64,000 nucleotides of DNA from Candidatus Latescibacterota bacterium. Its GTDB lineage: Bacteria > Latescibacterota > UBA2968 > UBA8231. A program made the translations under genes and the position numbers. Shown one piece after another: positions 9,898 to 38,972 of this stretch (positions within the stretch are counted from its first letter, which is position 1; each line of letters starts with the position of its first letter). Where the stretch lies: the NCBI GenBank assembly GCA_965206595.1, contig OZ242214.1, positions 3,488,001 through 3,552,000 of the forward strand, in the 5' to 3' direction. The notes below the pieces were generated by a model. That model had not been told where the DNA came from. It ran no database searches and saw nothing but the letters and a program-made list of their open reading frames with translations.

Positions 9898-10338
9898 TCA
9901 CTCGCTGCGGCGCAATCCGAAGGCGGTCAGGGCGAGTCCGGCAAGGAAGCAGAGCGCCCCGACCGGAACCAGGAGAATGCCGATGAACGGGTCTCCGCCA
10001 TGAGTCCAGATTCCCCCGAGAAAGAACCCCAGGGGAAGAAGCAGGGCCGCGGCCATCAGCAGCGGGGAGGCCTTCGCCACGCGCTCGGCCTTGGCCTCCT
10101 CCTGGCTCCCCGCCACAAGAGCGTACAGGATGTTGACGATTGCCAGGAGGCCCCCGTGGGCGTGTGCGAGCCTCCACATCAGCCGGCGCACCTCGTTTCC
10201 GACGTCGAGGTACCACCCGACCTTGAAGCCGTGCATCGACTCCAGCGCAATCCCCAGCGTCGCGAAGAGGAGCAGGGCGAGCCATCCGAAGCGCATGTTG
10301 CGGCCGGCAATCCGCCGGGAATCTGTCGTGGTATTCAT
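9898..10338 (-). CDS. small 4-TM membrane protein with ESMHG and RLAHAHG motifs
   Basis: ATG 10338 (MNTTTDSRRIAGRN) with GAGGGG RBS, 8 bp after the cytochrome stop. Four hydrophobic segments. It is the C-terminal part of the 492-aa track ORF. Confidence 0.75.
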   Translation of the reverse strand: MNTTTDSRRIAGRNMRFGWLALLLFATLGIALESMHGFKVGWYLDVGNEVRRLMWRLAHAHGGLLAIVNILYALVAGSQEEAKAERVAKASPLLMAAALLLPLGFFLGGIWTHGGDPFIGILLVPVGALCFLAGLALTAFGLRRSE

Positions 10339-10346
10339 CCGTCCCC

Positions 10347-12221
10347 TCACTCCTGAAGATAGACCACCCGGTTGTCGCGGCGGCTCAGCAACTCCTGCAG
10401 GACGCCGATGTCGACGGCTCCGGAACGTATCAGCAGCCCCGAGACCTCGCCGGCTCCGGCCGCGGTGCGGCGCCAGGTTCTCCTCAGCTCGCCCAGGGCT
10501 GCCGCCCGCTGCCGCGGCGGGGAGTCGAACTCGTACGCCAGCGTCTCGTACTCCGGAATCGTCATCAGGGTCTGATGGGCGCGGTAGCGAACCACGTCGT
10601 ACGAGTCCTGCATCAACAGCCCCAGGAACGGCGGCATCCACCAGGAGCCGGCCGCCTCCTGTGCCTCTTCCCGGCCGAAGGCCCAGGCCATGATCCCTCG
10701 CTGCCCGGCATCCCCCCTTATGGCTAGCAGGGGACCGACGGCGACGTCCCGTTCGTCCGGGGGGATCGTCGGCTGCGGTTGGCCGTACCACTCCTCGAGG
10801 TGAGCCGCCGTCCATGCGTAGGTCCTGTCGAGGTGGCACAGATTGCAGGCGTCGGGACGCCCGGTCTCCACTGCGCCGGCGACGTTGGGCGAGGTGATGG
10901 CGTGGCTGCGAATCGCCCGCTGCTGTCCCCAGGTGGTGTGCGGCATGTGGCAGTTGATGCACTGGCTGGCAGCCGACTCGGGCGGGTGGTGCGTGTGCGC
11001 CTGCAGGTTCCCGGGCCCGTCGAATCCTGAATGGCACTGCACGCAGGCCCGGGGACCCTCCATCCGCGGCTTCAGCTGGCGGTTCGCCCAGGTCTTTGCC
11101 GGGCGGACGTCGCCGTGATCCTGGTGCATCTCGTGGCACGAGAGACAGGTCATGATGCCGCGGTCCGGGTCGCCGTGAGTGAAACAGGGGGAAACCATCA
11201 GGTCGTTGTACTCCCTGCCGGTGACGCGCACCAGGCCGTCCGCCCAGAAGTACTGCTCCCCCTCGAAGCTGACCTCGCGGAGCGGCAGCTCCCCGTCCCC
11301 TGCCCGGAACGGGGAGCCGTTCATTTTCCAGGCCGTGAAATCGGCGTCGCTCTTCGGATCGAAGACCGCGTGGCACTGGCCGCAGACCAGGGACTGGGGG
11401 CCCGGCTCCAGCCGCTTCGGGTTGACGATGGTCGGATCCGCATCATCGCTCCAGTAAAAGGCGTAGCGGCTCGCGGGAGAGCGGCGCGCCCGTACGTGCG
11501 CCTCACCGGGACCGTGGCAGGACTCGCAGGCAATCCCGAATTCCACGGCCTCCGAATCGAAGCCCTCTCCCGGAACGAGCCCGGGATTGCCGCGGGTCGA
11601 ATGGCAGAGAATGCAGGAGGCGTTCCAGAGTCCGGAGACCCCCGGCATGGGCTCGGGAGGCTTGAGAAAGACAGAACCGATGTACATCCAGCGGTCGGTG
11701 CCGATGACGTAGGCGGCATCGAGGATGCGCAGGGAGCGGTCGAAATCCCCGGCTTCGTACCAGTAAACCTGGAAATGGTGCGACCCCGTGGTCATGACGA
11801 TGCGGCGCCGGATCCACGGGCGGGAACCGGCCGGCCCGCGGGCATCGGGATCGCGGAACCCGACCCAGATTTCGTTGTTTTCGACGCTGAAGCGGTACTG
11901 TCCCGACCCGGTGGTGACGCTGAGTTCGTCGAGGGGGGTGGCGACGGTCCGGGGCGAGGCGACCTGCGTCATGGTGCGGTGCCAGGAAGCCCGCCAGGAA
12001 TCGTACTGCCCGGGATGGCAGGAACGGCAGGCCCTGGAAGAGACGAAATCCCCGGTGGCTGCCTCTATGGGGCGGTGTTGCGGTTGCGGCTGCTCCGAGA
12101 GCGGGTACGGCTTCCGGTAACCGGTGGCAATCCCCAGACAGACGATTACCGAGCCGAGAAGCGCATATCCCAGTTTCCGCTTGATCCGCCCTCCCGCATC
12201 GGAACTACGGGCTTGACCCAC
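10347..12221 (-). CDS. multiheme (octaheme) c-type cytochrome, membrane-anchored
   Basis: Eight CxxCH motifs: CRSCH, CILCH, CESCH, CGQCH, CLSCH, CVQCH, CINCH, CNLCH. N-terminal hydrophobic anchor, HEAT-like C-terminus. Confidence 0.9.
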   Translation of the reverse strand: MGQARSSDAGGRIKRKLGYALLGSVIVCLGIATGYRKPYPLSEQPQPQHRPIEAATGDFVSSRACRSCHPGQYDSWRASWHRTMTQVASPRTVATPLDELSVTTGSGQYRFSVENNEIWVGFRDPDARGPAGSRPWIRRRIVMTTGSHHFQVYWYEAGDFDRSLRILDAAYVIGTDRWMYIGSVFLKPPEPMPGVSGLWNASCILCHSTRGNPGLVPGEGFDSEAVEFGIACESCHGPGEAHVRARRSPASRYAFYWSDDADPTIVNPKRLEPGPQSLVCGQCHAVFDPKSDADFTAWKMNGSPFRAGDGELPLREVSFEGEQYFWADGLVRVTGREYNDLMVSPCFTHGDPDRGIMTCLSCHEMHQDHGDVRPAKTWANRQLKPRMEGPRACVQCHSGFDGPGNLQAHTHHPPESAASQCINCHMPHTTWGQQRAIRSHAITSPNVAGAVETGRPDACNLCHLDRTYAWTAAHLEEWYGQPQPTIPPDERDVAVGPLLAIRGDAGQRGIMAWAFGREEAQEAAGSWWMPPFLGLLMQDSYDVVRYRAHQTLMTIPEYETLAYEFDSPPRQRAAALGELRRTWRRTAAGAGEVSGLLIRSGAVDIGVLQELLSRRDNRVVYLQE

Positions 12222-12233
12222 CCCTTGACGGCA

Positions 12234-14915
12234 CTAGTAGGTGAGGGCCACCGTGCGCAGCAACTCCCGGCTGCCGACGCCGGTGTCCCCGGTGTCGGAG
12301 GCGAGCTTCAGACGCACCGCATACACACCCGGAGGCACCAGCGCCTCCGCCTCGTCGCGGCCGTCCCAGGCGACGGTGTAGCCGCCCGCGCTGACCTCCC
12401 TCCGCTCCTCCAGACGACGCACGCGACGGCCCGTCAGATCGTAGACCTCCACCGCCACCGCGGTGCTGGCACCCACCATCATCACCGTGAAATCGAGCCG
12501 CAACTCGTCGTTCACCCCGTCTCCGTTGGGAGAAAAAACCCGCGGCGAAATCGCCAGATCCCTGAACAGCAGCTTGTGCTCCGGCTGCGCCACCAGCTGC
12601 AGGGAACTGCGCGGAACCTTTTCGTCGACCCGCTGCCAGAAACCTTCCCCCTGCGAGTTGCGCAGGTGCACCTGCAGGCGGCCCCCGGCAGTCAGCAGGA
12701 TTCCCCTGAAGTCGACGCGCAACACCTCCGCTTCCGAAGCAACCGCATCGAACGCGATGTGGAGACTGTCCGGGGTGTCCGACACCATGCGTACGTTCTC
12801 CAGGCGCAAGCCGCCGGGGTCGCCCCCTTCCGCGAAGGCCGACGCCGGACCGGCGAAAACCGAATCGCGAGCAGGGTCGAAATGCACCTCCATTCCGGGA
12901 GGCGGTTTAATCAGCAGCTCGTCGAAGCTCTGCTGAAGGGAGCCGAGTTCCACCAGGAGATTGAAACCGCGTTCCACCCCGAGAGAATCGACGCGGGTCG
13001 GAACCACCAGCCCCTGCAGGCTTTGCGCCACCGGGTCCGAAAAGTTCACGCGCACCGCGTCCAGAGTTGCAAATGCCTCCTGATCACCAGACAACAGCCG
13101 CGCCCGCACCTTGAGGTACTTGCGCGGCGACGGCGAGGTGATCGCACTACCCGACGCCACTCCGTACGGCTCGCTCCACGGCTCCCAGTCGCTGCTCGCC
13201 ACCTCCTCGGGAACGATGTCCCCTTTCTGCGAGCTGATGCGGATCTTGCTGTACGCCACCTCCGTAATTTCCGTTCCATCCGCCTTGAAGTAGTGCAGCA
13301 GGGTATCGAGCGAGTTCCCGGTGCGCGTCTGCACCTCGACGCGGGTGCCGGGCTGGTGGGCGGAGTCCCACTCGATGGTGGTCAGGTTGCGGCTGCCGCC
13401 CAGCTGGATGAGACTGGAGGTCAACTCGACCCGGGGCTGGTACCCTTCTCCGTACAACTGCAGCTCACTGAGAAGCGCATCGCCGAGATTGTCGCGCGGA
13501 AGGGCTTCGAACCCGACGTCCCACTCGATGCGGAAGAACCTCGCAGTCACGCGTGGGAACTCCTCGATATTCAGGATAATGCGGCTGCGGCCGCCGTTCC
13601 TCTCGGCCACTGTCTGCCACTTGAGACCACCATCCACCTCCTTGGTGCCGTCGGAAACATCGAGGCGGTAATCGTACCACGAGGTGGCGCGGGCGACCCC
13701 CCTGCCGCCGGCCAGCCTGAATCCCTCTATCCAGAAAAACGAGCCCAGGTCGATGAACAACTCGTCCGTCAGCCGGTTGGGGTCGGCGTTGCTGAGCCTC
13801 ATCTTTTCCTGCGATTCGATGTTTCCGTCGATGAGATTCAGCGGATTCACCGAAGTGGGAGCGGAATTGACGATCACGCCGCGGCGGCGAATCACGCCGC
13901 TCGCAAGGTCGTCACCGGGACCCCAGACTTCCAGCTCGGCCAACCGCGGACGTTCCCGCCTGTAATAGCGGATTCCCCCTTTCAGGGCCTCATCCAGCCG
14001 TTCGTAGTCATCCGGGTCGAGGGTGACTTCACCGCCGTTCGACAGGCGCTTTACGTAATCGATCGCCCCGGCGTCTTCCGGCGACTCCTCCAGAAGCCGG
14101 TTGTAAGCCTCTTCGCCGATCTCCTGGCCGCGGTCGAGGTCGCTGCCGTGTACGACCACCTGAACGAACCGCACAGCCCTCTTTTCCCCGTCCAGAACGG
14201 ATCCGGCCGTTCCTCCCGAAATGCAGGAATTGTCAGGGCAGGCGGTCGTACCGACCAACTCCGGTTTCGGGTCTGACTCAGCCCGCAAGTCGGCTTCGAA
14301 CACTCGCTGGCTCTTGTTGGGCCGCAGCGTCTGGATGACCTGCCGAAAGTCCAGGCTCTTGCTCGCGGGGGCCGTCCCCGGCGCCTGGCCGTTGGAGACC
14401 AGAACGTCAAAGAGGAGAAACGGATCCCCCATACCCTCTTCGACGAACTTCAACACCATCCGGTCCGCCAACACGATGCGGCCGAGATCGATGGTGAACC
14501 ACCACTGCGTCGCCAGGCCGAAATCGCCCGACGGGATCTCCGGCTCCCAGTACGTAGTCAGGTCGCCGTCGAACAGGTTGACGACATCCTCGCGGTTGGA
14601 GACACCCTGGATCGCGTCCAGCAGGGATATCTCCGCCGGGTCTTTGCGCGCCAGCTCCTGGGGCGGATTCCAGCGCAGGTGATCGACGATGTCGAGAACC
14701 GCGTTTGTCCGCCGTCGCCAACGACGGGGGCGAAGCTCCCCGGAGGAGCTGATATCGAGTGTCCCTTCGGCGAACTCCCACTGCTCCCAATGGCTTTGCG
14801 AGTCGATAACCACCTGGTTTCCGAGAATGCTGTACCCTGGCTGCGCCGCGATTCCCGCTGGGAAGAAATGCGCCCAGATGATTGCGCCTGCGAAAAACTG
14901 ACAGAACCTTTTCAT
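12234..14915 (-). CDS. secreted protein, two discoidin-like domains plus C-terminal FlgD-Ig / gliding-motility-CTD-like domain
   Basis: Signal peptide MKRFCQFF...IAA. NLFDGDLTTYWEP, WFTIDLGR, LAELEVWG. C-terminal FSPNGDGVND, YDLTGRRVR, WDGRD, PPGVY, VALTY. Confidence 0.8.
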   Translation of the reverse strand: MKRFCQFFAGAIIWAHFFPAGIAAQPGYSILGNQVVIDSQSHWEQWEFAEGTLDISSSGELRPRRWRRRTNAVLDIVDHLRWNPPQELARKDPAEISLLDAIQGVSNREDVVNLFDGDLTTYWEPEIPSGDFGLATQWWFTIDLGRIVLADRMVLKFVEEGMGDPFLLFDVLVSNGQAPGTAPASKSLDFRQVIQTLRPNKSQRVFEADLRAESDPKPELVGTTACPDNSCISGGTAGSVLDGEKRAVRFVQVVVHGSDLDRGQEIGEEAYNRLLEESPEDAGAIDYVKRLSNGGEVTLDPDDYERLDEALKGGIRYYRRERPRLAELEVWGPGDDLASGVIRRRGVIVNSAPTSVNPLNLIDGNIESQEKMRLSNADPNRLTDELFIDLGSFFWIEGFRLAGGRGVARATSWYDYRLDVSDGTKEVDGGLKWQTVAERNGGRSRIILNIEEFPRVTARFFRIEWDVGFEALPRDNLGDALLSELQLYGEGYQPRVELTSSLIQLGGSRNLTTIEWDSAHQPGTRVEVQTRTGNSLDTLLHYFKADGTEITEVAYSKIRISSQKGDIVPEEVASSDWEPWSEPYGVASGSAITSPSPRKYLKVRARLLSGDQEAFATLDAVRVNFSDPVAQSLQGLVVPTRVDSLGVERGFNLLVELGSLQQSFDELLIKPPPGMEVHFDPARDSVFAGPASAFAEGGDPGGLRLENVRMVSDTPDSLHIAFDAVASEAEVLRVDFRGILLTAGGRLQVHLRNSQGEGFWQRVDEKVPRSSLQLVAQPEHKLLFRDLAISPRVFSPNGDGVNDELRLDFTVMMVGASTAVAVEVYDLTGRRVRRLEERREVSAGGYTVAWDGRDEAEALVPPGVYAVRLKLASDTGDTGVGSRELLRTVALTY

Positions 14916-14944
14916 CCTGTGCCTATCCTCCAGATCCATCCGGT

Positions 14945-15054: not shown

Positions 15055-16011
15055 CTGGTAGGTGAGGGCCACCAGGCGCGGCAGCTCCCGGCTGCCGACG
15101 CCGGTACCCCCGGTGTCGAAGGCGGCTTCAGGCGCACCGAGCACACACCCGGAAGCACCAACTCATCCGCCTCGTCTTGGCCGTCCCAGGGGATCGCGTA
15201 GCCGCCTGCGCTGACCTCCCGCCCCTCTTCCAGACGGCGCACGCGACGGCCCGTCAGGTGGGAAATTTCGGCGGCCACCGCCGTGCTCGCCGTTGGCCTT
15301 GTAGAAGTGCAGCAGCGTATCGAGCGTGTTCCCGGTACGCGTGCACCTCGACGCGGGTGCCGGGCTGGCGATCGGAGTCCCACTCGATGCGGAAATACCT
15401 CCCGATCACTGGTTGAAACTCATCGACACTCAGCGAAATGCGTTTGCCAAAGCCTCTGCCGATGTTTCTCTCCGCCACTGTCAGCCACTTGAGCCCCCCG
15501 TCCACCTCCTTGACCTGCGATTCGATGTTGCCGTCGATGAGATTCTGCGGATGTACGGAATTGCGGGCGCTATTGACGATCGACCCCCTGCGGCGAATTA
15601 CGCCCCTCGCCAGGTCGACGTCGCCCGTCATAATTCCGGCTCCCAGAAAGTGGTCATGTCGCCGTCGAAGGCGTTGACGACCTCCTCGAGGTTGGAGACG
15701 CCCTGGACCGCGTCGAGCAGGATAATCTTCGCCGGTGCCCTGTCGGCCAGCTCCTCGGGCGGACTCCAGCGCAAGTGATCGACGATGTCGAGAACGGCGT
15801 TTATCGGCCGGTGCCAGCGACGGGGCAGAAGCTCGCCGGAAGAGGTGATCTCCAGTGTCCCTTCGGCGAACTCCCAGATCCCCCAGTGGCTCGGCGAATT
15901 GACAACCACCTGGTTCCGCGAATGCTGTACCTTGGCTGCGCGGCTGCTTCCCCTGCGGCAAAGTGGACCCAGATGATCGCGCTTCCGGGCAAACGGACAG
16001 AACCTTTTCAT
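15055..16011 (-). pseudogene. internally deleted, frameshifted paralogue of the 12234-14915 gene
   Basis: Colinear homologous blocks: MKRFC, NAVLDIVDHLRW..FDGD.TT.WEPE, DLARGVIRRRG, KEVDGGLKW, RIEWD..PGTRVEV, LTGRRVRRLEE..WDG. Frameshifts present. The parent TAG is changed to CAG at 15055-15057. Confidence 0.9.
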
Positions 16012-16190
16012 CCCGGTCACCTCGGCGGCAAGCCTTTCGACGCAGGATCCACTCTATTTTGAGCATACTGTCTTTATTTCCAGGCTCCCAAACAGTTCGG
16101 TAGCGGAACTTCCCGGCACCTGAACTTCATGGGTTTGAAGCTGCCGCGCGGTCCCGTTCGTTCACCTCTGCCTTCCTCTGAGCCTTTGCC

Positions 16191-18815
16191 GTGATCCACA
16201 CAGCCACTGTTCTCGGGGTTTTCTTCCTTTCCGGAGTCAGCGGCCTCGTCTACCAGATTCTGTGGGTTCGGTTGTTCGGCAACGTCTTCGGAAACACGGT
16301 CCATTCCGCGGCCGCGGTGACCGCGGTGTTCATGTTCGGGCTGGGGGTTGGAAGCTACCTGATCGGCCGCTGGGGGGATCGGCTCTTCCTGTCCGATTCC
16401 AGCCGTCCGCTGCGGTTCTACGCGTACGCGGAGTTCCTGATCGGTCTCTGGTGCCTGGCGATTGCATGGGTCCTGCCCGAGCTCACCGCTCTTTCTGCCT
16501 GGGGGTCGGCCTACATCCCCGGCCAAGAAGGCTGGTTCGAGCTGTCGGGGGCATCGCACCTGCTCCGGTACGGGACCGCGGCATTCCTGCTCGCCCCGGC
16601 AACGTTGCTCATGGGCGGTACCCTGACGCTGCTGATCCGCCACCTCGTGGCACACGAGACTGGCCTCGCCGGCTGGAAAGTCGGGCTGCTCTACGGATTC
16701 AACACCCTCGGGGCTGCGGTGGGAGCCTTTCTCACCGACCTCGCTCTGGTTCCCCTCATCGGGGTCTTCAACACCGAGCTTGCCGCCGTTTCCCTCAATT
16801 GGGGAGCGGGCGCAGTGGCCCTTCTGTGTGCCCACCGCTTCTCCGGACTGCAGGCGCCCTCTCCCCCGGGAGGTGACGAACCCGAAGATACCGAGTCGTT
16901 CGGCCCCGCTTGCGGAGTCGTGGGGTTGACCGCTGTGGCGTTGTTTCTGTCGGGTTTTGCGGCGCTGGGCATGGAGATCGTCTGGTTCAGGTTGCTGATC
17001 TCCATACTGGGCGGATACCGCGCCGTCTTTTCGATCGCCCTCACCGTCATCCTGCTCGGGATCTGGCTCGGGGCTCTACTCGGGGGCGCGGCCCACCGGC
17101 GCTGGGGCAGACCGGCCCTCGCCTACGCCCTCACCCAGTCGCTGTTCGCCATCGCTGCCCTGGGGCTGGCCGCGATGTACGACTCCAGCTTCATCGTGTC
17201 TTATGCGAGCGCGGTCATGGACAGGTACGAGCAAGCGTCGGAGGCGGGACGCTGGTTGATGGACGTGTGGGCCAACTTCCGCGTCGCCCTTCTGCTCGTG
17301 GGTCCACCGGCGGTCTGTCTGGGCTTCACCTTCCCGCTCGCCAACGCCCTGGTGCAGCGTTCCCACGCTTCTGTGGGGGCGCGGGCGGGCGCCCTCTACC
17401 TCTCCAACACCGCCGGGAACGTCACGGGGGCCCTGGTGGCTGGATTCCTGTTCCTGCCGCTGTTCGGTATCCAGAACTGCTTCGCGGTTTTCGCATCCCT
17501 CTCCGTGGCAGGGATCGCGCCGCTGGTGGCGGTCGCGCGAAGGGACCGCTCCTCATCGCGCTTCGAGTGGGGGTTGTTTCTTGGCGGTCCCGCTGCGGCA
17601 GCCGCGGCCGTTGCCGCCTTTCTCGCCCTTCCGGCCGACCACATGCTTCTCCGCTCCTTCGACTTCAGCCTCGCCTCGCGCGGGGAGCGCATCCTGGCCG
17701 CGCACGAGGGGGTCAACGAAACCCTGCTGGTCAGCGAACGTGGAGAGCAGGGGCGCAGGCTGCTCACAAACGGACACCCGATGTCGTCGACCTTGCTGCT
17801 CAACCAGCGCTACATGAGGGCGGCCGCCCATGTCCCGCTGCTGATGCACGAGGAACCGGCCAGCGTCCTCAATATCGCCTTCGGGGTCGGCAACACCCTG
17901 CACGCTGCCTCGCTGCACCCCAGCGTGGAAAGACTCGAGGTCGCCGATCTTTCGCGCGGCATTCTCGAGCACGCCGGCTACTTCGCGATCTCCAACCAGG
18001 ATGTACTGAAGGATCCGCGCGTCCGCGTTTTCATCAACGATGGCAGGCAACACCTGCTCATGCAGGCGGAGGAGGCCTACGACCTCATCGCGCTCGAACC
18101 GCCGCCGATCAACATGGCGGGAACCGCCTCCTTGTACACGCGGGAATTCTACCAGTTGGCGCGCAGTCGCCTGCGCCCCGGGGGGTACATGTCGCAGTGG
18201 CTGCCTGCCCACCAGCTTCCGGCAGAAGCGACCTTCTCTCTAATCCGTGCCTTCCTCGACCTCTTTCCCGAGGCTGTGCTGCTGGGATCGCACCGCAACC
18301 TGATCCTGCTGGGAATTCGCGGTCCAGCGCTCGAGTTGGATATCGGACAGGTGGCCCGGCGTCTCGAGCAGCGTCCTGCAGTCGCCGAAGACCTCGGCTC
18401 GATCCTCATGGGCACCCCGACCGAGCTGGCCGGGACGTTCGTCGCTTCGCGCAGGACGCTGGAAAAGTTGTCGTCGCCAGTGCGGGCCCTGGTCGACGAC
18501 CGCCGGGTGAACGAGTACGCGGCGCGCTCGAACCTGCTGATCAACGTGCAGCCGCGCGAACTGTTCGACATCCGCGACGCCGCCAGCTGGTGCCCTGACT
18601 GCTTTTCCCCGCAACACGCCGCCGGGGCTCTCTCCGACCTTCCCGCCTACCTGGAAATCATGCAGGAGATCTACCGGAGCGAGGCGTTTCTCGTCGATGC
18701 GGCGCGACGGTCCGCACCCGTGCTCGTCGACCTGGAGTCGGAGCCACGCCGCCGCGCCGCCTTGCGCTCACCTTTTCTCAGAATGATGCTTCCGAAGCTG
18801 GCCGGCCGTCGCTGA
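16191..18815 (+). CDS. fused MFS-like membrane domain / spermidine synthase-like SAM-binding domain
   Basis: FFLSG.SGLVYQILW.R, LMGGTL, YGFNTLGA, second repeat LGMEIVWFR. C-terminal VLNIAFGVG, NDGR, YDLIALEPP, LYTREFY, SQWLP. Confidence 0.85.
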   Translation: MIHTATVLGVFFLSGVSGLVYQILWVRLFGNVFGNTVHSAAAVTAVFMFGLGVGSYLIGRWGDRLFLSDSSRPLRFYAYAEFLIGLWCLAIAWVLPELTALSAWGSAYIPGQEGWFELSGASHLLRYGTAAFLLAPATLLMGGTLTLLIRHLVAHETGLAGWKVGLLYGFNTLGAAVGAFLTDLALVPLIGVFNTELAAVSLNWGAGAVALLCAHRFSGLQAPSPPGGDEPEDTESFGPACGVVGLTAVALFLSGFAALGMEIVWFRLLISILGGYRAVFSIALTVILLGIWLGALLGGAAHRRWGRPALAYALTQSLFAIAALGLAAMYDSSFIVSYASAVMDRYEQASEAGRWLMDVWANFRVALLLVGPPAVCLGFTFPLANALVQRSHASVGARAGALYLSNTAGNVTGALVAGFLFLPLFGIQNCFAVFASLSVAGIAPLVAVARRDRSSSRFEWGLFLGGPAAAAAAVAAFLALPADHMLLRSFDFSLASRGERILAAHEGVNETLLVSERGEQGRRLLTNGHPMSSTLLLNQRYMRAAAHVPLLMHEEPASVLNIAFGVGNTLHAASLHPSVERLEVADLSRGILEHAGYFAISNQDVLKDPRVRVFINDGRQHLLMQAEEAYDLIALEPPPINMAGTASLYTREFYQLARSRLRPGGYMSQWLPAHQLPAEATFSLIRAFLDLFPEAVLLGSHRNLILLGIRGPALELDIGQVARRLEQRPAVAEDLGSILMGTPTELAGTFVASRRTLEKLSSPVRALVDDRRVNEYAARSNLLINVQPRELFDIRDAASWCPDCFSPQHAAGALSDLPAYLEIMQEIYRSEAFLVDAARRSAPVLVDLESEPRRRAALRSPFLRMMLPKLAGRR

Positions 18816-27633: not shown

Positions 27634-27659
27634 GTCATCCCTCTTGTTTGTTTGGAGAA

Positions 27660-29736: not shown

Positions 29737-29759
29737 AGGTACTCCAAGAAAGCGAACCT

Positions 29760-30659: not shown

Positions 30660-30784
30660 AGCTGACTCCTTCAGCTAAGGGATGGAGGGTTTGGTTCAGA
30701 CAGCAAATTGAAAAGCAGAAAATTCCGCCCAAGAGTCCTTACCGACTCACCTCCTTACGCAATTGCCACGGGGCGAATTTGGAG

Positions 30785-30830
30785 ATATATCGGCGATATC
30801 GGATATATCGGCGATATCGGGCGATATCGA
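30785..30830. repeat. about five imperfect 9-bp tandem units (G/T)ATATCGG(C/A)
   Basis: tatatcggc gatatcgga tatatcggc gatatcggg c gatatcga in intergenic DNA. Confidence 0.85.
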
Positions 30831-30837
30831 ATGTATC

Positions 30838-30866
30838 TAAATACGAAATCAAACATCGAATGTCAA
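30838..30866 (-). promoter_or_regulatory. candidate sigma70 promoter TTGACA-N17-TATTTA for the 29760-30659 gene
   Basis: Perfect -35 at 30861-30866, 17-bp spacer, imperfect -10 at 30838-30843, AT-rich context. Confidence 0.55.
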
Positions 30867-30943
30867 GAATTTATTTGGGAGTGCAACAGAACTTCGTCAA
30901 TCCGTTGGAAGAACTGCAATTGCATGTTTTTCAACAAGTTACG

Positions 30944-33904
30944 CTAATCCAATCCCGCGAATATCGACACGAAGGTCAGCCCGGCCGTCTCGATCTCCCG
31001 CGACTCGTCCACCACCTCGAGGGATCGCCGGTCGATGCGAATACCCCCTTGCAGGGTCAGGCTGTAGCCGAGATACTCGCTTCTGTTCGTAAGCTGCACG
31101 GCGAAGACGGAACCGAGAAAATCGCCCGTGAACTGGCCGGCAGCCATGTCGTCTTCGGCATCTTTCAGATTGAAGAACAACCGCTGCTCGTAGCCGAGTT
31201 GGAGTTGGGTCTGACGCAGCAGCGGAACACTACCCTGCAGAAAAATCAGTCCATCCCAAGAACGCCTCTTGACCAGATCTCTTCCAAATGGGGTCTCTTG
31301 CAGATATTCGCTCTTGACTCGGGGACCGAGCTGAAACATTCCCAGATCGAAAACATAGTCTGCCTTGTTGATGATCCCGAAAAAACCCGAATTCTCGCGT
31401 CCGTTGCGCCCCTCCGGTCCCAATGGGTCGAACAGTACGATCGGGTCGCCGGCCACGTCTAGCAGTCTGTTGCCGTTTTCATCGAGTGCGAATTCGACAT
31501 CAGCGTTGCGTTGGCGCCAGCGATCCCATTTGAACCTGTGCAGGGTGCCCCAACCTCGGGGGCTGTCATAGCCCCACTCGGCGTAGAGGGTATTGATCCA
31601 CGTGTCCCGCGCCGCCAAGCGATCATGAATCGGCGTCAGCCGCCCGGCGCTCTCGGAAGCCAGGCCGAAGTCGGCTCTGGGGATCACCCATTGTACCAGG
31701 TGATCCGGGATATCGTCCTTGGCCAGCTTCAACATGTCGAACACGCGGAGACGCCCCCAGCTGGCGTTGTCGTGATCGAGAGCGGACACCGCGTACGAGG
31801 TGACGTTCTCGCGCTCACTTTTTTGCAATTCCTGTCGAAGCTGCCCCAGGCGCAATTTGGCGTCCGGGCCGAACTGCAGGCCGCCGTAGGCGTTGTATCC
31901 GTGGTGGTCCTTCTTGTACGGGTAGTCCGGGTCGTCGTCGTTCTCGAAGCGCTCCACCCAGCCGTTGTTGTTGAGGTCGATACCGTACAGAAATTCAGGT
32001 CGGTCGCTCCGGTACCGGAGGAACGGCTCGTCGTAGTCTGGAAAGAGGTTCCGGCGATCGAATATGTTGTTCTGGTTGAAATCGGAGATGAAGTCCCCGT
32101 TTTCATCGTACCCCGGGAACACTTCCGGATCGGCTCGCCCCCTGGGTTCAATCGTAGTTTCCTGCAGTCCCTCCTGCGGTATCAGGCTTCCCTCACCGAT
32201 TCGCAGCTGGTCGGGATGTCTGTCGTTGTCGTCGTTGTCGTCGACGAAGTCGTAGAGTTCGTTAGTGGCTTCGGGTGAGTAATCGGCGTTTCCCCCCTGG
32301 CGCAGTGGCAGCACGCTGGTCGAATACTCGTCATCCATTCCGAATCCTTCGACGAACAGGGTCGCCGGCCCATTGCGCCACGAAAGATTGGCCAGCCAGC
32401 CGAGAGCGTGTCCGTCCCCCCTGATGCCGGATATTGCGCGGTGCTCCTTGCGGTTGGCTACCGGATATTTTCGGTACTGTGTGTTTATGTTGGCCTCGCC
32501 GTAGAAGTCGATGCCGTAAAAGTTCCGGATTTCGGTGGTGAACCCGACGATCTGGGTCGCCGTTGGAATGCCATAATCGAAAACCACCTCGCGCTGGTTC
32601 AGCTGGTTCTTGATGTTGCCTTCAGCGCGCGCCGCAACACGAAATTGAGGCACTCCGAAACGGTCCGTCTGCCGGTTCGAGCTCATCTCGACGCGGTAGT
32701 CGTTCGCAAGGACCAGCCGCACGCGCACGTTGCGGATATTGTCGATCGCGGCCACGGCTTCGTCGGTCGTCAGGTTGAGTTGCTGCTGCAGCTTTGCCCG
32801 CAACGTCCCCGATTCATCGTCCCCTTCATTGGGTGCCAGCACGTACCGCAACACGATGTCCTCAGGGCCGTCTGCGGTCAGGAATCCCTGCAGGACCTTG
32901 CCCCCTTCGATGGCCGGGCGGAAGCCGAGATCGTTGGCTGAGAACGTGGTGTCTGTCGCCACCATCATCTCTTCGCCTTCGATGAGGGTTTCGCGCAGAA
33001 GAGTGGTTGTAATTTCGATGTCATCGCTGAACAGGACCGCTCCACCCTCGTTGTCTTCTGGAGAATCGTCAGCCAGGCGCAGTACCAGCAGATCGAGGCG
33101 CTGACTCAGCTGCTCGCTGTTCAGTCTGCCGGTGAAGGCGTTGCCCCCGAATGCATCGGCTGCACCGGTCCCGTTGTGGCTGTTAACGAAGGTCAGTCCC
33201 AACGTCAGAAAATCGCTCACGTCCGCGGTGGAGCGGACCGCCGCGAGGTTCGTAAAATTCTGGAAAGTCGATGAACCCGATCCCAGCGCAGGGAATGAGA
33301 TGCGCGAGAACAGGCCGGTTGCGTGGAAGCGCTCCGCGGTATACTCGGTCACCACCCCGTTGAAACCGGCTTTGCGGAACGTCATCGGCGTCAGAGTCAT
33401 GCTGATCTCGTCCCCGACCATGACAGTGAAACCGCGGCCTCGACTGATGTCCGAGGCGATAACGAGCCGGTTGAACCAGTTGTGGTAGCGGGCGGCGGCA
33501 ACGATACGCGACGAGCTTGAGATTACAGGCTGCACCTGCTGCCAGCCGTACACCGACCACCCCTGGGTGACGAGGTCCCCGAAGAAATCATAGTAGTAGT
33601 TCCCCTCGAGTCCGGCGTCGACATAGCGCTTCTGCCTGCGCTTTGCCCAGTTGGTGTACGCCCACTGCTGGCGCCCGTGCTCGCTGAAGTGCACCGGGCC
33701 GAGGTACCATCTCTGTATGGCAGGATCGAGGGCTTCCATGTAATTTGAAACCCCTGGGGTGCGGTACAACAGGCGACCACCTACCCGATCCCCCAGCCGT
33801 CCCCCGAAGTCGGGGGTTTGCGCTCGCAGTGGAGTCTGTCCCAGCAGGAGTATGCAGAAAGCCCCCGCCAGAGCGGCCGTCACAAGACCGTTGCCCGGCT
33901 TCAT
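30944..33904 (-). CDS. large exported protein, putative outer-membrane beta-rich protein with Asp/Asn-rich Ca-binding-like core
   Basis: Signal peptide. DDNDDNDRHPD, FPGYDENGDFISDFNQN, GIDLNNNGW. Amphipathic strands in the C-terminal third, ending FVSIFAGLD. Confidence 0.7.
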   Translation of the reverse strand: MKPGNGLVTAALAGAFCILLLGQTPLRAQTPDFGGRLGDRVGGRLLYRTPGVSNYMEALDPAIQRWYLGPVHFSEHGRQQWAYTNWAKRRQKRYVDAGLEGNYYYDFFGDLVTQGWSVYGWQQVQPVISSSSRIVAAARYHNWFNRLVIASDISRGRGFTVMVGDEISMTLTPMTFRKAGFNGVVTEYTAERFHATGLFSRISFPALGSGSSTFQNFTNLAAVRSTADVSDFLTLGLTFVNSHNGTGAADAFGGNAFTGRLNSEQLSQRLDLLVLRLADDSPEDNEGGAVLFSDDIEITTTLLRETLIEGEEMMVATDTTFSANDLGFRPAIEGGKVLQGFLTADGPEDIVLRYVLAPNEGDDESGTLRAKLQQQLNLTTDEAVAAIDNIRNVRVRLVLANDYRVEMSSNRQTDRFGVPQFRVAARAEGNIKNQLNQREVVFDYGIPTATQIVGFTTEIRNFYGIDFYGEANINTQYRKYPVANRKEHRAISGIRGDGHALGWLANLSWRNGPATLFVEGFGMDDEYSTSVLPLRQGGNADYSPEATNELYDFVDDNDDNDRHPDQLRIGEGSLIPQEGLQETTIEPRGRADPEVFPGYDENGDFISDFNQNNIFDRRNLFPDYDEPFLRYRSDRPEFLYGIDLNNNGWVERFENDDDPDYPYKKDHHGYNAYGGLQFGPDAKLRLGQLRQELQKSERENVTSYAVSALDHDNASWGRLRVFDMLKLAKDDIPDHLVQWVIPRADFGLASESAGRLTPIHDRLAARDTWINTLYAEWGYDSPRGWGTLHRFKWDRWRQRNADVEFALDENGNRLLDVAGDPIVLFDPLGPEGRNGRENSGFFGIINKADYVFDLGMFQLGPRVKSEYLQETPFGRDLVKRRSWDGLIFLQGSVPLLRQTQLQLGYEQRLFFNLKDAEDDMAAGQFTGDFLGSVFAVQLTNRSEYLGYSLTLQGGIRIDRRSLEVVDESREIETAGLTFVSIFAGLD

Positions 33905-33906
33905 TT

Positions 33907-36684
33907 CTACTCTACTCCAGCGTAGATCGTCATGAAGCTCGTGGTTTCGGTTCTGCCTTCAGACTTCTTTCCGAACACACCCGGCGAACTCTGTTCCACC
34001 GACTCCGACAGAATGCGGCCGACCCGCAGCCCGATCTGCGTGGTTAGACGATAGCCCAGGTATTGCGAGTTGTTGGTCAGCTGCAGCGCGAAGATCGCCG
34101 AGCGTAGATCGCCGGTCGGGCCGGTGATTCCCAGATCTACCATCTCGTCTTCGTCCGTCTCCTGGTCGGAAAACTGAGCCAGCTCGACGCCTCCTGTAAC
34201 GACACTCCTGCTGAGCACCGGGAACTGGGCAAGCAGAATCGCCAAGCCCGTCCACTGCTTGCGATCCTCCCTCTCTTTCAGGAAGGCGTCCTGCCGCAGG
34301 AATTCGCTCTTCAGCTTCGGCTGCAGGTCGAGGTTCCCGATTGAGTAGTCACCCTCGACCTTGTTGATGATCCCGATGAGGCTGGTCGTGCCGTTCAGCG
34401 GGCGCCCCTCGATGTCCTGCGCCCCTTCCTCGATCTGGTTGTAAAACTCGTACTTCATCTTGTTGACAACCTTCAGCCGCGGAATCGACGTATAGTCGAG
34501 CCCCAACCAGGCCGTGTTTATCCACGTGTCAGGCGCATTCAGGAGATCCTCAACCAGCGGCTGGGCCGGGGCACTGCGAAACGGCGAAGGTGCTCTGCGG
34601 TCATCGGGAATCGTATCCGCGACACGCTTCAGCATATCGAACACCCGCACCCGACCAATACCTGCGTAGTCCTTATCGAAGGTGAACATCCCGTAAGTGG
34701 TGCGGTTGTCGCGTTTGTCGGAGAGCATGCGCTCGTCCAGGCGTCCCACGAACACGCGGGTTTCCGGGGTCAGGTGAGTTCCTACGAAGAGGTTGTAGCC
34801 ACGGCGGTCCGCTTTGTACGGATAGTCGGCCAACTCGTCGTCCTCGAAGCGATCGATCCAGCCGTTGTTGTTGAGGTCGATACCGAACAGGTACTCGGGG
34901 CGATCGACGTGGTGGCGCAGGAACGGCTCCTCATAGTCGGGGATGATGTTGGGAACCGAAGTGTTGTCGTTCTGGTTGAAGTCGGAAATGAAGTCGTTGT
35001 TCTCGTCCCACCCGGGGAAGACATTGAAGTCGGCCGCCTGACTGCCGACACGGGCCCAGTCGGGCCTGCTGTCCTGATCGTCGTTGTCCTCGACGAACTC
35101 ATAAATGGAATCCAGCGGAAAGTCGTACCTGAAGTCCCCCTCGTTGTCGGTTACGTAGGTACTTGTCGAGTAGTCGTGGTCAATTGAATACAGCTCGGCA
35201 AAGCCGAAGTGGGGGTATTCCTGTTTGGACAACGTGAAGATGCCTGCCTCCGCCTGCTCGGATGAGATTTCATGGCCCTCGTCAGCGGCAAAGCGGGCGG
35301 CGTTCGGATACTGCGAGTAGCGGATGTTGCGGTCCCACTCCCCGTAGAAATCGAACCCCGCTATATCCGTCCCCTCGATCGTGAATCCGCCAATGAGATT
35401 GGCTGTCGGCAGTCCGTAATTGAACTTCACAACCCGGACGTTCGAGATGTCCTTGATGTTGCCCGCTGCCCGCTTGACGTTGAGCAGCACAGGCTCGGAC
35501 TCGTCGATGACCGAGGCGGTCAGAGGCGCCGCCGGCACCTGGCGGCGGCCGGTCTGCCGGTTCGACCACATGTCTATACGGTAGTCGTTGGCGAGTAGGT
35601 AATCGAACTCGACGTCGACGATGCTCGTGAGGTCCGGGCCTACGTACGCCGGGTCGGTGAAGTCGTAGTTTATCACGATCCGCTCGCTGCCGTCGGCGGC
35701 GAGGAATCCTTCCCGCTCCAAACCGCCGAATATGGTTGGCCACTCCGTGCCGGAGCGGACGACCTCCTCGAGGGTGAACACGGTTTCCATGCCCGTCTCG
35801 AAGTCCCTGCTGCGGATGCGGATGTCGTGGCTGAACAGCGCAGCCCCTCCCTCGTTGTCGTCAGGGCTGTCGTCGCTGAGGACGATGGCCACTGCAGAGA
35901 TCGGAGTGCTGCTTTGTCCGGCGGTCAGGTTTCCGGCGATGAAGTTTCCCGTAAACATGTCGAGCGAGGTATTGGCGTTGCGGGCGTCGACCAGCGTACT
36001 CCCCAGGGTGATGAAATCCCCGAGCTGCAGCGTGGCGCGGCCGCCGACGAGGCTCGTGGAGTTGGTCCGCTTGAGGGGGGTGGTGGTGGTTCCTCCGGCC
36101 GGGTCGCTGATGCGCGAAGCGATGATCGTGGCGGCGTATTTGTCTGCTGCGAAATCGATCTGAAGACCGTTGAAGTCCGGCTTGGAGAAGGTCATCGGCG
36201 TAAGGGTCGTGCGGATCCGGTTGCCAAGAGTGATGGCGTAGGCGTACTGGCCCTTGGCATCGCTGCTGACACCGAGGCTGTTGAAGAAGCCCTGGAACCT
36301 GCTGCCCTTGAAGATGCCGGAGCCCTCCTGCTGCGGCTGGTCCTGGCGCCAGTCGTAGACCAGCCAGCCCCTGCTGACGTAGTCTCCAAAGAAATCGTAG
36401 AAGTAGTCCCCTTCCAGGGCCGTATTGACGTAGCGCTGATAGTGAGTACGGGCGTAGTTGGAGTATTCCCACTGGCGCCAGCGATATTCATTATACAGTT
36501 CCTGCGGCACGTACCATCTTTTGACCGTCGGATCCAGAGCTCCGAAGACTACTCCCGGCCCTCTGGGCTCGAACGACACGGCGCCCCCCCGTTGGACCCC
36601 GAGGCGACTGCCGTAATCCTGTGCCATAGTCGCCGTCGCGGTCAGCGCGAGGAACGTCAGTACCGATCCTGCACGGATTTTCAA
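33907..36684 (-). CDS. large exported protein, paralogue of 30944-33904
   Basis: TTG start at 36684 after GGGAGG RBS. Signal peptide then QDYGSRLG. Same conserved blocks (TLTPMTF.K..FNG, DDSP.DNEGGA, FPGWDENNDFISDFNQN). Ends FMTIYAGVE, 2 bp from its partner. Confidence 0.7.
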   Translation of the reverse strand: MKIRAGSVLTFLALTATATMAQDYGSRLGVQRGGAVSFEPRGPGVVFGALDPTVKRWYVPQELYNEYRWRQWEYSNYARTHYQRYVNTALEGDYFYDFFGDYVSRGWLVYDWRQDQPQQEGSGIFKGSRFQGFFNSLGVSSDAKGQYAYAITLGNRIRTTLTPMTFSKPDFNGLQIDFAADKYAATIIASRISDPAGGTTTTPLKRTNSTSLVGGRATLQLGDFITLGSTLVDARNANTSLDMFTGNFIAGNLTAGQSSTPISAVAIVLSDDSPDDNEGGAALFSHDIRIRSRDFETGMETVFTLEEVVRSGTEWPTIFGGLEREGFLAADGSERIVINYDFTDPAYVGPDLTSIVDVEFDYLLANDYRIDMWSNRQTGRRQVPAAPLTASVIDESEPVLLNVKRAAGNIKDISNVRVVKFNYGLPTANLIGGFTIEGTDIAGFDFYGEWDRNIRYSQYPNAARFAADEGHEISSEQAEAGIFTLSKQEYPHFGFAELYSIDHDYSTSTYVTDNEGDFRYDFPLDSIYEFVEDNDDQDSRPDWARVGSQAADFNVFPGWDENNDFISDFNQNDNTSVPNIIPDYEEPFLRHHVDRPEYLFGIDLNNNGWIDRFEDDELADYPYKADRRGYNLFVGTHLTPETRVFVGRLDERMLSDKRDNRTTYGMFTFDKDYAGIGRVRVFDMLKRVADTIPDDRRAPSPFRSAPAQPLVEDLLNAPDTWINTAWLGLDYTSIPRLKVVNKMKYEFYNQIEEGAQDIEGRPLNGTTSLIGIINKVEGDYSIGNLDLQPKLKSEFLRQDAFLKEREDRKQWTGLAILLAQFPVLSRSVVTGGVELAQFSDQETDEDEMVDLGITGPTGDLRSAIFALQLTNNSQYLGYRLTTQIGLRVGRILSESVEQSSPGVFGKKSEGRTETTSFMTIYAGVE

Positions 36685-36731
36685 AGCTGGTTTCCTCCCA
36701 TGTTGCAGCTGAAACTTCTGGTAGTCCCGGC

Positions 36732-38972
36732 TCAATAAGCCAGACTGACTACACCTGGAATTTTTTCCGCCCCGGTTCCGGCGTCGAGGGCGACGACGTA
36801 GATGTAATTTCCAGGCGGCATCAGGTCTCCCGCTTCGTTGCGACCGTCCCATTCCTGGGTGAAACGGCCGCTGGATTTGGTTCCGCTGTAGATCCTGATG
36901 CGCCTCCCCGACAGGTCGTAGATTGCGAAATCGAGCTGGGTCGGTCTGGCGATGTTGGTGATATCGCATGCGATCGAAACGAATTCATTGATGCCGTCCC
37001 CGTTGGGCGAAAACACCGCCGGAATCGCCTTGACGTTGACGAGCAGCTCATCGATGACCGGCACATCGACAAAGAGGTTGCGCGATACCGGTGTGCCGAT
37101 CGGATCGGTGTCCGGGTCGGTTTGACCGGATTGGCTCAGGTCGGCGGCATTGCCCGGCTCGAGAGGCTGACCGAAGGCCGGATCCTGCTCATTGAGAGCC
37201 ACCCCGCTGAAGCGGGTGCCTACCCGCAGAACGGTGCTGTGAAAATCGACTCGCAACAGGGTCCCGCTTTCATCCACGTGGGGGAAAGCCAGTGTGAAAC
37301 CGCTGCTGTCGTTTTCCACGACGGTAAAATCCCCCTTGGCCGCAGGGGTATCGGTGACGGACTGCCCGGTGAAATCAGCCTCGTGACGGACGGTGCCGGC
37401 GGCGGAAAGAATTTGCACCGAGCCCATGCTCCGGGTCTGCAGCGGTGTCGCGATGCGCAGGCTGCCAAATCCGAGGTCATCACCCTTGCTCGTGTAGAGT
37501 ACGGCGTAGGTGAAAGCGGTTTCTTCTCCAAGGACAGCCGAACGGGGAAATATCTCCGCCAGCAGAGAATCCGCGAACACCGGGCGCGAAATGTCGAAAG
37601 CCAGCCCGCCTACCCCCGTGGCCGAATCGAAGGTCTCGTTGGCGAAGCCTATCCTGAACTGGAGGTACCGCCTGGTTCCGCTGGTGACGATGGGAATCCC
37701 GGTGGTCTCGTCCTCGAGAGCCTCTTCCCCCGCGATCCCGTCCGGGGTATAAGGAGGCGACCAGGCGCTCCAGTTTGTCAGATCGTCCCTGATCGACGAC
37801 CTGGCGTCCGTGTCGAGGTTGAAGTAAGAGGCGTTGTCGAGGGTGATCGACTGTCGGTCCTCGAGGGAAAGATTGTTGAAGGTGAGCAGCGATTCGCGCC
37901 CGTCCCCTTCGGGGTTGTCGAGAACGGTTTCGATCAAGGCGACGAGATCGGCGTCCTCGACCTCGGATGCCGGTTTCCAGGGCGCGTCGATCGGGATTTC
38001 CTCAACGGTCGCCCCGAGCCGCACGACCCTGCCGGAGGGCTGCACGCCTATGCGGGTGTACTCGACGGGGTCGGGGTCGTTTCCCGAACGCGTCTGGATG
38101 CTGACCTGGGACCGATCCGGATCGCCGAGTTGTTCCTGTGTCCACCGGAGGTTGCCGAGAATGGCGCGTTCGCCGAAGTCGAAAACATTCGAAACGTAGG
38201 TGGCCTGAGGCACGAAACCATCGCTGAACACCTGCATCTCCGCAATCTCGAAGCCAACGGAGGACAGGGACTTCAGCCGGATGTGGCGAACGAACCGGGT
38301 CGGAATTCTCAGGTCGACGACCGCCTCCTCGTTCTGTCCTTCGAGGGCGATCGTTTCCCAGATCAGGGCCCCGTCTCGCACCGATTCAGGGGAGCCGTCA
38401 TTGACGAACAGTTCGTACCCCTTGATGAATTCGCGCTGGTTGGGAAACGCTGGGGCCGGGAAATCTTCAGCGGCGTTGCGAGGAAAGAAGCGGAAGCGGT
38501 TGACACCGAATACCGACCCGAGATCGAACTGCATGATCAACCCGAAGGCCCCGGCGCTCGATCCAGCTGACAACGCCTTCACTTCGAGGGCGCTGTTTCC
38601 GTCCCCGTCATACATCTTAGGAAAGTTGCCTTCGAGCGTGCGAAAAGAAGGCAGTGGCGTGAAAACCTGTCCGCCCCGGACAACGACTCCCAGCAGGATG
38701 TTGTCGGAGGTATCTGCCTGCTGCGGAAAGATCCAGCCAGACCTGTCGAGCAGGTCAAAGTCGATAACCCCACCCGGGGTGTTGGTTTCATCGACGTTTC
38801 TGTCGTCGAGGATCACCGTCGCAGGAATATCCCCTCCGCCGCCTTCCCAGGGCAGGCCGGAAACCCCGACGACTATGGATTCGGTCGTGGCACCGGAGGC
38901 TCCGGCGGAAAGGAGGACCAAGGCACTGGTTGCTGCCAGGATCGGGACTCGAGCAGCGTCACTAGTGATCAT
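36732..38972 (-). CDS. secreted protein, discoidin-like domain plus FlgD-Ig/CTD-like domain
   Basis: Signal peptide. MYDGDGNS, FDLGSVFGV, FEIAEMQVF, QTRSG, WSAWS, FSPNGDGINE, WDGRN, PPGNY, VVSLAY. Confidence 0.8.
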   Translation of the reverse strand: MITSDAARVPILAATSALVLLSAGASGATTESIVVGVSGLPWEGGGGDIPATVILDDRNVDETNTPGGVIDFDLLDRSGWIFPQQADTSDNILLGVVVRGGQVFTPLPSFRTLEGNFPKMYDGDGNSALEVKALSAGSSAGAFGLIMQFDLGSVFGVNRFRFFPRNAAEDFPAPAFPNQREFIKGYELFVNDGSPESVRDGALIWETIALEGQNEEAVVDLRIPTRFVRHIRLKSLSSVGFEIAEMQVFSDGFVPQATYVSNVFDFGERAILGNLRWTQEQLGDPDRSQVSIQTRSGNDPDPVEYTRIGVQPSGRVVRLGATVEEIPIDAPWKPASEVEDADLVALIETVLDNPEGDGRESLLTFNNLSLEDRQSITLDNASYFNLDTDARSSIRDDLTNWSAWSPPYTPDGIAGEEALEDETTGIPIVTSGTRRYLQFRIGFANETFDSATGVGGLAFDISRPVFADSLLAEIFPRSAVLGEETAFTYAVLYTSKGDDLGFGSLRIATPLQTRSMGSVQILSAAGTVRHEADFTGQSVTDTPAAKGDFTVVENDSSGFTLAFPHVDESGTLLRVDFHSTVLRVGTRFSGVALNEQDPAFGQPLEPGNAADLSQSGQTDPDTDPIGTPVSRNLFVDVPVIDELLVNVKAIPAVFSPNGDGINEFVSIACDITNIARPTQLDFAIYDLSGRRIRIYSGTKSSGRFTQEWDGRNEAGDLMPPGNYIYVVALDAGTGAEKIPGVVSLAY

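Follow-up and report, generated by a model that had tools for sequence, protein, structure and literature searches.

How might a bacterium that stands outside the Bacteroidota hold a varied set of secreted proteins on its surface? The question is raised by a locus at positions 9898-38972 of a 64,000-nucleotide stretch of the genome of a Candidatus Latescibacterota bacterium (assembly GCA_965206595.1, contig OZ242214.1, positions 3,488,001 to 3,552,000; hereafter, the window), in which genes for five secreted proteins with a common C-terminal tail ending in Tyr lie on the same strand as genes for two large exported proteins, LP1 and LP2, which we call giant barrels. A sequence-only reading of the window had proposed that the five are type B cargo of a type IX secretion system (T9SS) and that the large pair translocates or anchors them. 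Our own reading, which we hold tentatively, is that the locus is a surface-display module whose cargo would be exported through SprA and would then dock on the giant barrels to form a varied coat of lectins on the cell surface. This is a real, widespread and apparently undescribed module that places the T9SS pairing of cargo and barrel on a new barrel family.

The T9SS has been called exclusive to the Bacteroidota (PMC12618676) and found in no other clade (bioRxiv 10.1101/031039), and a review has extended it to the Fibrobacterota-Chlorobiota-Bacteroidota (FCB) superphylum (PMC11205867). A literature search at the level of titles and the beginnings of abstracts, supplements not covered, returned no paper on type IX secretion in Latescibacterota or Latescibacter and no account of this cassette, and the available part of PMC4454575 makes no mention of such a system.

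Results

All five cargo open reading frames (ORFs) of the sequence-only reading are confirmed and lie on the minus strand, and their products have hydrophobic N-termini with AxA-like sites (judged by eye). The C-termini are also those that had been described: VALTY (12234-14939), VALTY (22572-25196), LPIAY (25648-27633), VPLVY (27660-29615) and VSLAY (36732-38972). The tails can be aligned over about 105 amino acids (aa), and the motif (F/I)(S/T)PNxDG(V/I)N(D/E), which had been attributed to all of them, occurs in four, 93-100 aa before the end, while 22572-25196 carries the variant FSPNDDRVND. Four of the five tails score above the cut-off of Pfam CHU_C (PF13585) and none reaches that of TIGR04131 (35; best score, 25.9 bits). 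A model of the tail, made for one of the five proteins (36732-38972, residues 641-746), matches the C-terminal domain (CTD) of PorU (6za2; Z 13.1, root-mean-square deviation (rmsd) 2.3, 99 residues aligned) and that of PorZ (5m11; Z 10.9). The TIGR04131 scores weaken the earlier assignment to type B CTDs, and we describe the tail as a predicted T9SS CTD-like domain that stays under the type B cut-off. A sequence search of the PDB with the cargo profile returned FlgD-like immunoglobulin-like (Ig) domains alone, and Foldseek with the whole cargo model gave TM-scores of at most 0.16.

The cargo had further been described as five discoidin proteins. Pfam F5/8 (discoidin) matches two of them (12234-14939 and 22572-25196), and the model of 36732-38972 matches a CBM32/discoidin fold at residues 87-255 (Z 15.1, rmsd 2.1, 123 aligned). 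For the remaining two, 25648-27633 and 27660-29615, the domain is deduced by alignment, since 27660-29615 aligns nearly full length to 36732-38972 at 27% identity and the two are 62% identical to each other. The cargo falls into three subfamilies, A/B (55% identity), C/D (62%) and E, with about 25% identity between subfamilies.

LP1 (30944-33904) and LP2 (33907-36684) are 37% identical and match no family in Pfam (E 0.01) or NCBIfam (E 0.1); a PDB sequence search with the barrel profile gave nothing under E 0.05. The family comprises 723 clusters at 50% identity, and a cluster look-up of 10 distant barrels yielded one taxon name, Latescibacterota. In a model of LP2 built from 150 sequences (pLDDT 87, pTM 0.82), 23 long strands run across residues 137-923 with a probable extra strand ahead of them, and the turns alternate between short and long in the DSSP list. 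LP2 is thus predicted to be an outer-membrane beta-barrel of about 24 strands, in agreement with the earlier proposal for the pair. Two large inserts interrupt the barrel, one beta-rich (240-424) and one rich in Asp and Asn (502-626) that is likely Ca-binding; as read from the secondary-structure list, both would face outside if the C-terminus is periplasmic. Residues 15-46, 61-67 and 82-90 were modelled with low confidence despite good conservation. The top Foldseek and VIA matches of LP2 are outer-membrane barrels with weak global fit; SlpA (Z 13.4, rmsd 4.7, 339 of 925 residues aligned, TM-score 0.27) and OmpM (Z 12.0) are the best of them, and ushers appear as weak matches (TM-score about 0.18). 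We also considered homology to SprA (hhalign probability 2.9%) and to PorV and rejected both, the barrels being detectably related to neither.

The evidence that carries our reading is the linkage between the two families. A profile of the five tails retrieved 142 ORFs in the genome, made up of 57 high-scoring ones that almost always end in Tyr, 70 lower-scoring ones that end in Arg or Lys, and 15 others; four Arg/Lys-tail proteins were scanned, three of this genome and one of a relative, and all passed the type A model TIGR04183. The barrel family counts 33 ORFs, grouped in 15 clusters. Of the 57 Tyr-tail genes, 33 are no more than 5 kb from a barrel, as against 5 of the 70 Arg/Lys-tail genes, and at 14 of the 15 clusters a Tyr-tail gene is found within 15 kb (17.7% at random). 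Eleven clusters are of the window type, combining A, C and E cargo with one to three barrels, a peptidyl-prolyl isomerase (PPIase) and often a CBM9-like gene; in three others, divergent barrel triplets are accompanied by a giant tetratricopeptide repeat (TPR) protein and DUF5683, and the last is a solo barrel. One barrel cassette lies 4 kb from sprA.

The same linkage holds in other genomes. At 78 loci of close barrels, Tyr-tail genes occur within 8 kb in every case and Arg/Lys-tail genes in none, and all 195 complete tails at these related loci end in Tyr. In 74 of the 78, a barrel gene is immediately preceded by a Tyr-tail gene, and a barrel stands directly downstream of at least 93 of 106 near-full-length E-type homologue matches, in 35 of 38 genomes, a lower bound given that 101 of the 150 barrel matches listed entered the comparison. 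In a phylum sample of 121 genomes, the best tail E-value, obtained with a profile of 16 sequences that has four barrel-positive genomes among its seeds, sets the two groups apart by twelve orders of magnitude: the 69 barrel-positive genomes are all at 1.5e-28 or lower, and the 52 barrel-negative ones are all at 3.5e-16 or higher or have no match. The tail classes could not be told apart by CHU_C counts, which were compared in five genomes.

Among the companions of the cassette, the exported two-parvulin PPIase (20915-22570) is specific to the window type: 10 of its 11 genomic copies are at the 11 window-type cassettes (6% expected at random), and it is present at 55 of the 78 related loci. The association of the large pair with CTD proteins and with this enzyme, anticipated by the sequence-only reading, therefore recurs elsewhere. 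Neither of the two main outcomes that would have told against that reading, a pair with no predicted barrel or a pair that does not co-occur with the CTD proteins in other genomes, was obtained. The CBM9-like family, assigned through the Atlas lead PF06452 (13-100% of cluster members), is present at 61-62 of the 78. CRTAC1-like genes are more loosely associated (6 of 11 cassettes, 13% at random; 23 of the 78 related loci), as are DUF6785 genes. The octaheme cytochrome, which had been grouped with the system, appears not to belong to it by this measure: it is a single-copy gene and was found at none of the 78 related loci within the 8 kb flanks examined. A small gene at 9898-10338 was rejected as a cassette member on the same loci and flanks.

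We found in this genome the components by which such cargo could cross the outer membrane. SprA scores 488 bits against a cut-off of 200 and PorU 618 against 420, with a PorV gene adjacent to the latter, and about ten PorV-like genes are present; across the phylum sample, 119 of 121 genomes have a SprA match, among them 67 of the 69 with barrels. One 96%-complete genome (G015) has barrels, cargo and a PorV-like shuttle, yet no SprA match at E 1e-10, which may reflect an assembly gap. Profile searches for PorP/SprF (PF11751, TIGR03519) gave nothing above cut-off in the genome, as the sequence-only reading had suspected from the window, the lone weak match being the PorV gene, and PF11751 was matched in none of 45 genomes of the family (the source genome and 44 others). 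Because SprA is found in 119 of 121 genomes and barrels in 69, the barrels are an accessory rather than the general pore, and because SprA, PorU and PorV are encoded whereas PorP/SprF was not found, they are more likely docks than a secretion pore. Of the two roles that had been proposed for the pair, anchoring agrees with the linkage; a separate role in translocation is not needed, since SprA, the PorU-PorV pair and about ten PorV-like barrels are encoded.

Discussion

In this study, we compared the cassette with known display systems, and it appears to work like the type B arrangement of cargo with PorP or SprF (SprB-SprF, PG1035-PorP, Fjoh_3952-Fjoh_3951). The two have in common a PNxDGxND-type motif near the start of an Ig-like tail of about 100 aa and a cargo gene followed immediately by the gene for an outer-membrane barrel; in both, the genome also encodes SprA, PorU and PorV and has a further, type A-like class of tails. 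Judged by sequence, however, the cassette is not a member of that group. Its tail, which ends in Tyr, lies under the TIGR04131 cut-off, and its partner, of about 930 aa with a predicted 24 or so strands and large inserts, is unrelated to PorV or to PorP, which is a 14-strand barrel (PMC9143113). It also differs from type B systems in its private PPIase, in the lack of detected GldM and GldN, and in its host outside the Bacteroidota.

In the scheme that we infer, cargo, barrels, PPIase and CBM9-like protein would be exported by the Sec route, to judge by eye from their signal peptides, and the cassette-specific PPIase, given its linkage, may aid periplasmic folding of barrels or cargo. The CTD fold and the presence of SprA suggest that the cargo would pass the outer membrane through SprA; what collects it may be the giant barrel or else a PorV-like shuttle that is shared and whose gene lies elsewhere. 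Such a shared shuttle may exist, much in the way that orphan type B cargo in F. johnsoniae have one shuttle in common (PMC12618676). By analogy to type B proteins, the tail is likely retained rather than cleaved; the cargo would then dock non-covalently on the large outer inserts of the barrel, for which the anchoring of type B cargo through binding to a neighbour-encoded barrel is a precedent (PMC9143113, PMC12618676). The heads, with their predicted discoidin/CBM32 fold, may bind glycans for adhesion or capture. Arg/Lys-tailed cargo would take the ordinary PorV/PorU route, and repeated duplication and decay of whole cassettes would diversify the displayed set.

Several observations weigh against this scheme. 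Physical binding between cargo and barrel is deduced from gene linkage. Among 60 adjacent pairs, the distances between E proteins do track those between barrels (Spearman 0.75-0.85, for the body and the inserts), but cassette duplication by itself is expected to produce such co-divergence. The pattern across the 121 genomes represents few independent gains or losses, as the barrel-negative genomes are four families and kin are not independent. The tail model matches unrelated Ig domains almost equally well (3wnk and 5axg, Z 11.4), and the discoidin fold is known from non-lectins too, with IFT25 and DOC domains among the fold matches. GldM was detected in none of 121 genomes and GldN not in the one searched, with no control genome above cut-off and GldK and GldL not searched, so that the phylum may possibly hold a T9SS core without the known motor. 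For the divergent barrel clade, 19 stretches with barrels were taken from 4 genomes in which no E-family match had been found; 15 of these stretches lack a Tyr-tail gene, and one of the 4 genomes (G052) has 63 barrel matches as against 15 tail matches; barrels must therefore have some role without Tyr-tail cargo. The barrels of G052 are mostly solo, several are split, and some lie beside sulfatases, a rhamnosidase, sigma-54 regulators, hybrid sensors and DUF6785 membrane proteins. The divergent clade is moreover linked to ExbB/ExbD motors: an operon of cargo, a PorV-like small barrel, one to three giant barrels, a giant TPR protein, ExbB and ExbD occurs in three distant genomes. One PorV-like subfamily is found in 32 of 69 barrel-positive and 0 of 52 barrel-negative genomes, and in 15 of its 30 loci the order is Tyr-tail gene, PorV-like barrel, giant barrel (13 are shuttle-TPR loci, and a CBM9-like gene lies upstream in 8 of the 30 overall). 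The PorV-like small barrel after the cargo gene could thus be the real anchor; since it takes the SprF position in those 15 loci, a shuttle role for the giant barrel is not required. The source genome has a single match to this subfamily, 92 kb from any Tyr-tail gene. When LP2 (residues 23-917) and the tail of the protein at 36732-38972 (its residues 643-746) were modelled as a complex, the score was 0.00 twice; the prediction had the last strand of LP2 clipped, used the tail alone and covered one of ten possible cargo-barrel pairs, and it counts neither way.

The motor-linked operons bear most directly on a reading of the cassettes as devices for capture and import, which has the docking step in common with ours and which we regard as rather doubtful. 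In it, the giant barrels would be substrate-specific uptake channels of a SusC-like kind, the T9SS-exported lectins would act as SusD-like lids or binders, and an ExbB/ExbD motor encoded elsewhere would work through the giant TPR protein. A large barrel with a surface binding protein, many paralogous cassettes and the ExbB/ExbD linkage of the divergent clade do recall SusC/SusD, and here too ExbB/ExbD homologues of that operon type lie 5-17 kb from two of the three barrel-TPR-DUF5683 clusters. The conserved N-terminal 110 or so residues of the barrels, poorly modelled, could be a plug. Yet LP1 and LP2 have no match to a TonB plug or to TonB-dependent transporter families such as PF00593, which matches 20 other places in the genome; the partner is a T9SS-tailed beta-sandwich protein rather than a SusD lipoprotein, with no SusD family match among the window genes; and the window cassette type has no motor gene in cis. 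It also lacks glycosidases, sulfatases and sensors: catabolic genes (sulfatase, PhyH, sugar isomerase, hybrid sensor) occur at 0 of the 11 window-type cassettes here and at 0-2 of the 78 elsewhere, and this lack of enrichment of the tested markers weakens the import reading for the window cassette type. Cargo-less barrels expanded to dozens in one genome, in part beside catabolic genes, speak for import, but this context has no fair null because the queries came from those very stretches. Myxococcus offers another model for barrels with motors, in that its GltA/B/H barrels retain the adhesin CglB (PMC9946355). Descent from an envelope-spanning force machine of this Agl-Glt type, with a barrel trio, an adhesin, a TPR scaffold and a TolQR-type motor that would drive movement over surfaces or powered adhesion, and with the window as its outer module, seems very improbable to us. 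Barrel triplets with a giant TPR protein and ExbB/ExbD/ExbD resemble it, as do paralogous barrels beside a surface adhesin, and an AgmX/PglI C-terminal domain scores above cut-off in two neighbours of other clusters (61 bits vs 40). Two ExbD genes per operon are, however, normal for TonB systems of this superphylum, and the source genome has such an arrangement at 5091519-5093698 as well. Full GltG and GltJ models stay far under cut-off (GltG 42 bits vs 650), Glt models matched none of the window genes scanned, the adhesin here is not a von Willebrand factor A (VWA) lipoprotein, the barrels have no sequence match, and the motor genes are absent from the window cassette.

The remaining alternatives turn on which barrel does what. 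That the pair forms a dedicated, SprA-independent secretion pore for the Tyr-tail cargo, with the PPIase as its chaperone in the manner of an usher, would account for the strict gene pairing and the private PPIase, as well as for the 96%-complete genome without a SprA match; ushers and LptD fall in the same size class of about 24 strands, and both are among the fold matches of LP2. We consider it improbable in view of SprA in 67 of 69 barrel-positive genomes, the T9SS CTD fold of the tail, the lack of a detectable relation to SprA, and the cargo-less barrels that are common in the divergent clade; neither an usher nor a PapD-type chaperone was matched by Pfam among the window genes. Equally, an ordinary T9SS with PorV-like shuttles might anchor the cargo, the giant barrels being co-inherited, non-binding and occupied with another job, for instance as structural porins like SlpA of Deinococcus or OmpM of Veillonella. 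The ten PorV-like genes and the subfamily that is confined to barrel-positive genomes fit this view, as do SlpA and OmpM as best fold matches of the LP2 model. This resemblance is probably generic barrel likeness, with TM-scores of at most 0.27, 12-13% identity and no S-layer homology (SLH) domain found. The PorV-like genes of this genome all lie at least 17 kb away from the 57 Tyr-tail genes, and none was found in the 78 related loci; with the direct adjacency of cargo and barrel preserved across many duplications, this makes a non-binding barrel quite unlikely.

Docking on the giant barrels after SprA export remains our preferred reading. If it is true, it would reveal a new tail-to-partner code and a new class of large outer-membrane barrel fold, and would provide a handle on glycan attachment or feeding by abundant uncultured bacteria. 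Independently of it, a non-Bacteroidota phylum encodes SprA in nearly all sampled genomes, and a single genome has more than 120 tailed cargo genes in two tail classes, of which the Tyr class is tied to giant barrels. A third sorting signal is a candidate: W[GA]x[IL]K within 8 residues of the stop occurs in 71 of 4888 called genes, many of them CBM9-like, against 0.3 expected from shuffled tails (example, the W-G-x-I-K tail of 29760-30659), and at 8 of 30 loci a gene of this kind comes before a PorV-like barrel. More speculatively, and on balance unlikely as a whole, a motor-less T9SS may sort three tail classes (Arg/Lys, Tyr and W-G-x-I-K), the Tyr class and its barrels of about 24 strands forming a modular glycan-capturing surface machine whose ancestral, ExbB/ExbD-linked form imported glycans or exerted force; this would be a third solution beside SusC/SusD and SprB/SprF.

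Locus layout and neighbouring genes

The core unit opens with the subfamily E protein (36732-38972, minus strand, 746 aa; model pLDDT 89), which has a signal-peptide-like N-terminus, the discoidin-fold domain, a beta-sandwich middle and the tail with its last residue Tyr. It is followed on the same strand by LP2 (925 aa, TTG start), LP1 (986 aa, a barrel by homology to LP2) and the exported CBM9/DOMON-like protein at 29760-30659, a regular cassette member. An intrinsic-terminator-like hairpin (29709-29736, minus strand; 11 bp stem, T8) would end this unit; it comes from a consensus scan whose overall site count is not above that of shuffled sequence. Beyond it, still on the minus strand, lie the C/D proteins of 651 aa (27660-29615) and 661 aa (25648-27633), a decayed remnant of a C/D-type tail region (25236-25550; tblastn/blastn, 75% DNA identity to 25676-25909), an A/B protein of 874 aa (22572-25196), the PrsA/SurA-like PPIase and an FG-GAP and ASPIC/UnbV (CRTAC1-like) protein (18849-20801). 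A remnant of an A-type Tyr-tail gene (15055-16013), in five pieces with 74-90% DNA identity to 12234-14917, has an internal deletion and a frameshift, and precedes the other A/B protein (12234-14939, 901 aa) and the octaheme c-type cytochrome (10347-12221, eight CxxCH), a neighbour probably outside the cassette. The two partial copies suggest that duplication and loss of cargo are still going on within the cassette. A plus-strand fusion of major facilitator superfamily (MFS) and spermidine synthase domains (16191-18815) stands between 12234-14939 and the rest of the locus. All the parts named by the sequence-only reading, namely the large pair, the double-parvulin PPIase, the CRTAC1-like protein and the cytochrome, are thus present.

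Near-identical contigs of two other public runs from different studies cover the gene order from about 20280 to 39500. No sigma-70 promoter match was found in the window at 20000-39500, and no plasmid match was found. One Atlas lead pointed to DUF6029 (score 0.89). In one metatranscriptome library, short contigs 89-98% alike cover the D, CBM9-like and E genes; they are a hint of expression at most, as they come from a related strain and may include DNA.

Elsewhere in the source genome, an operon at about 219600-228900 encodes a CBM9-like protein, a putative lipoprotein, a PorV-like barrel, a 1081-aa TPR protein, ExbB and ExbD, and is paralogous to the motor-linked barrel operons, without a giant barrel. 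A four-member family of Arg/Lys-tail proteins of about 600-660 aa (3757803-3759776, 3832294-3834255, 4970754-4972610 and 6505366-6507159) adjoins all four divergent-barrel clusters, often with DUF6785. Directly after one barrel cassette, at 5014598-5020123, lies a second C25 peptidase of 1841 aa with CARDB and FlgD-like domains, and at the same site a peptidyl-arginine deiminase with a type A-like tail.

The window itself is crowded. It holds three MFS/spermidine-synthase-like fusions (16191-18815, 49241-51901 and 57781-60771), four FG-GAP/ASPIC-UnbV proteins (18849-20801, 41287-42870, 45133-47430 and 51939-53708), TPR proteins and two DUF6785 genes. At 55444-57780 there are two IS630-like transposase frames, inverted and overlapping, with DDE_3 plus a helix-turn-helix domain in 55444-56577, and the segment 55467-57751 matches its own reverse complement at 69%. 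A gene of the class A beta-lactamase family (PF13354, 183 bits) lies at 6582-7475.

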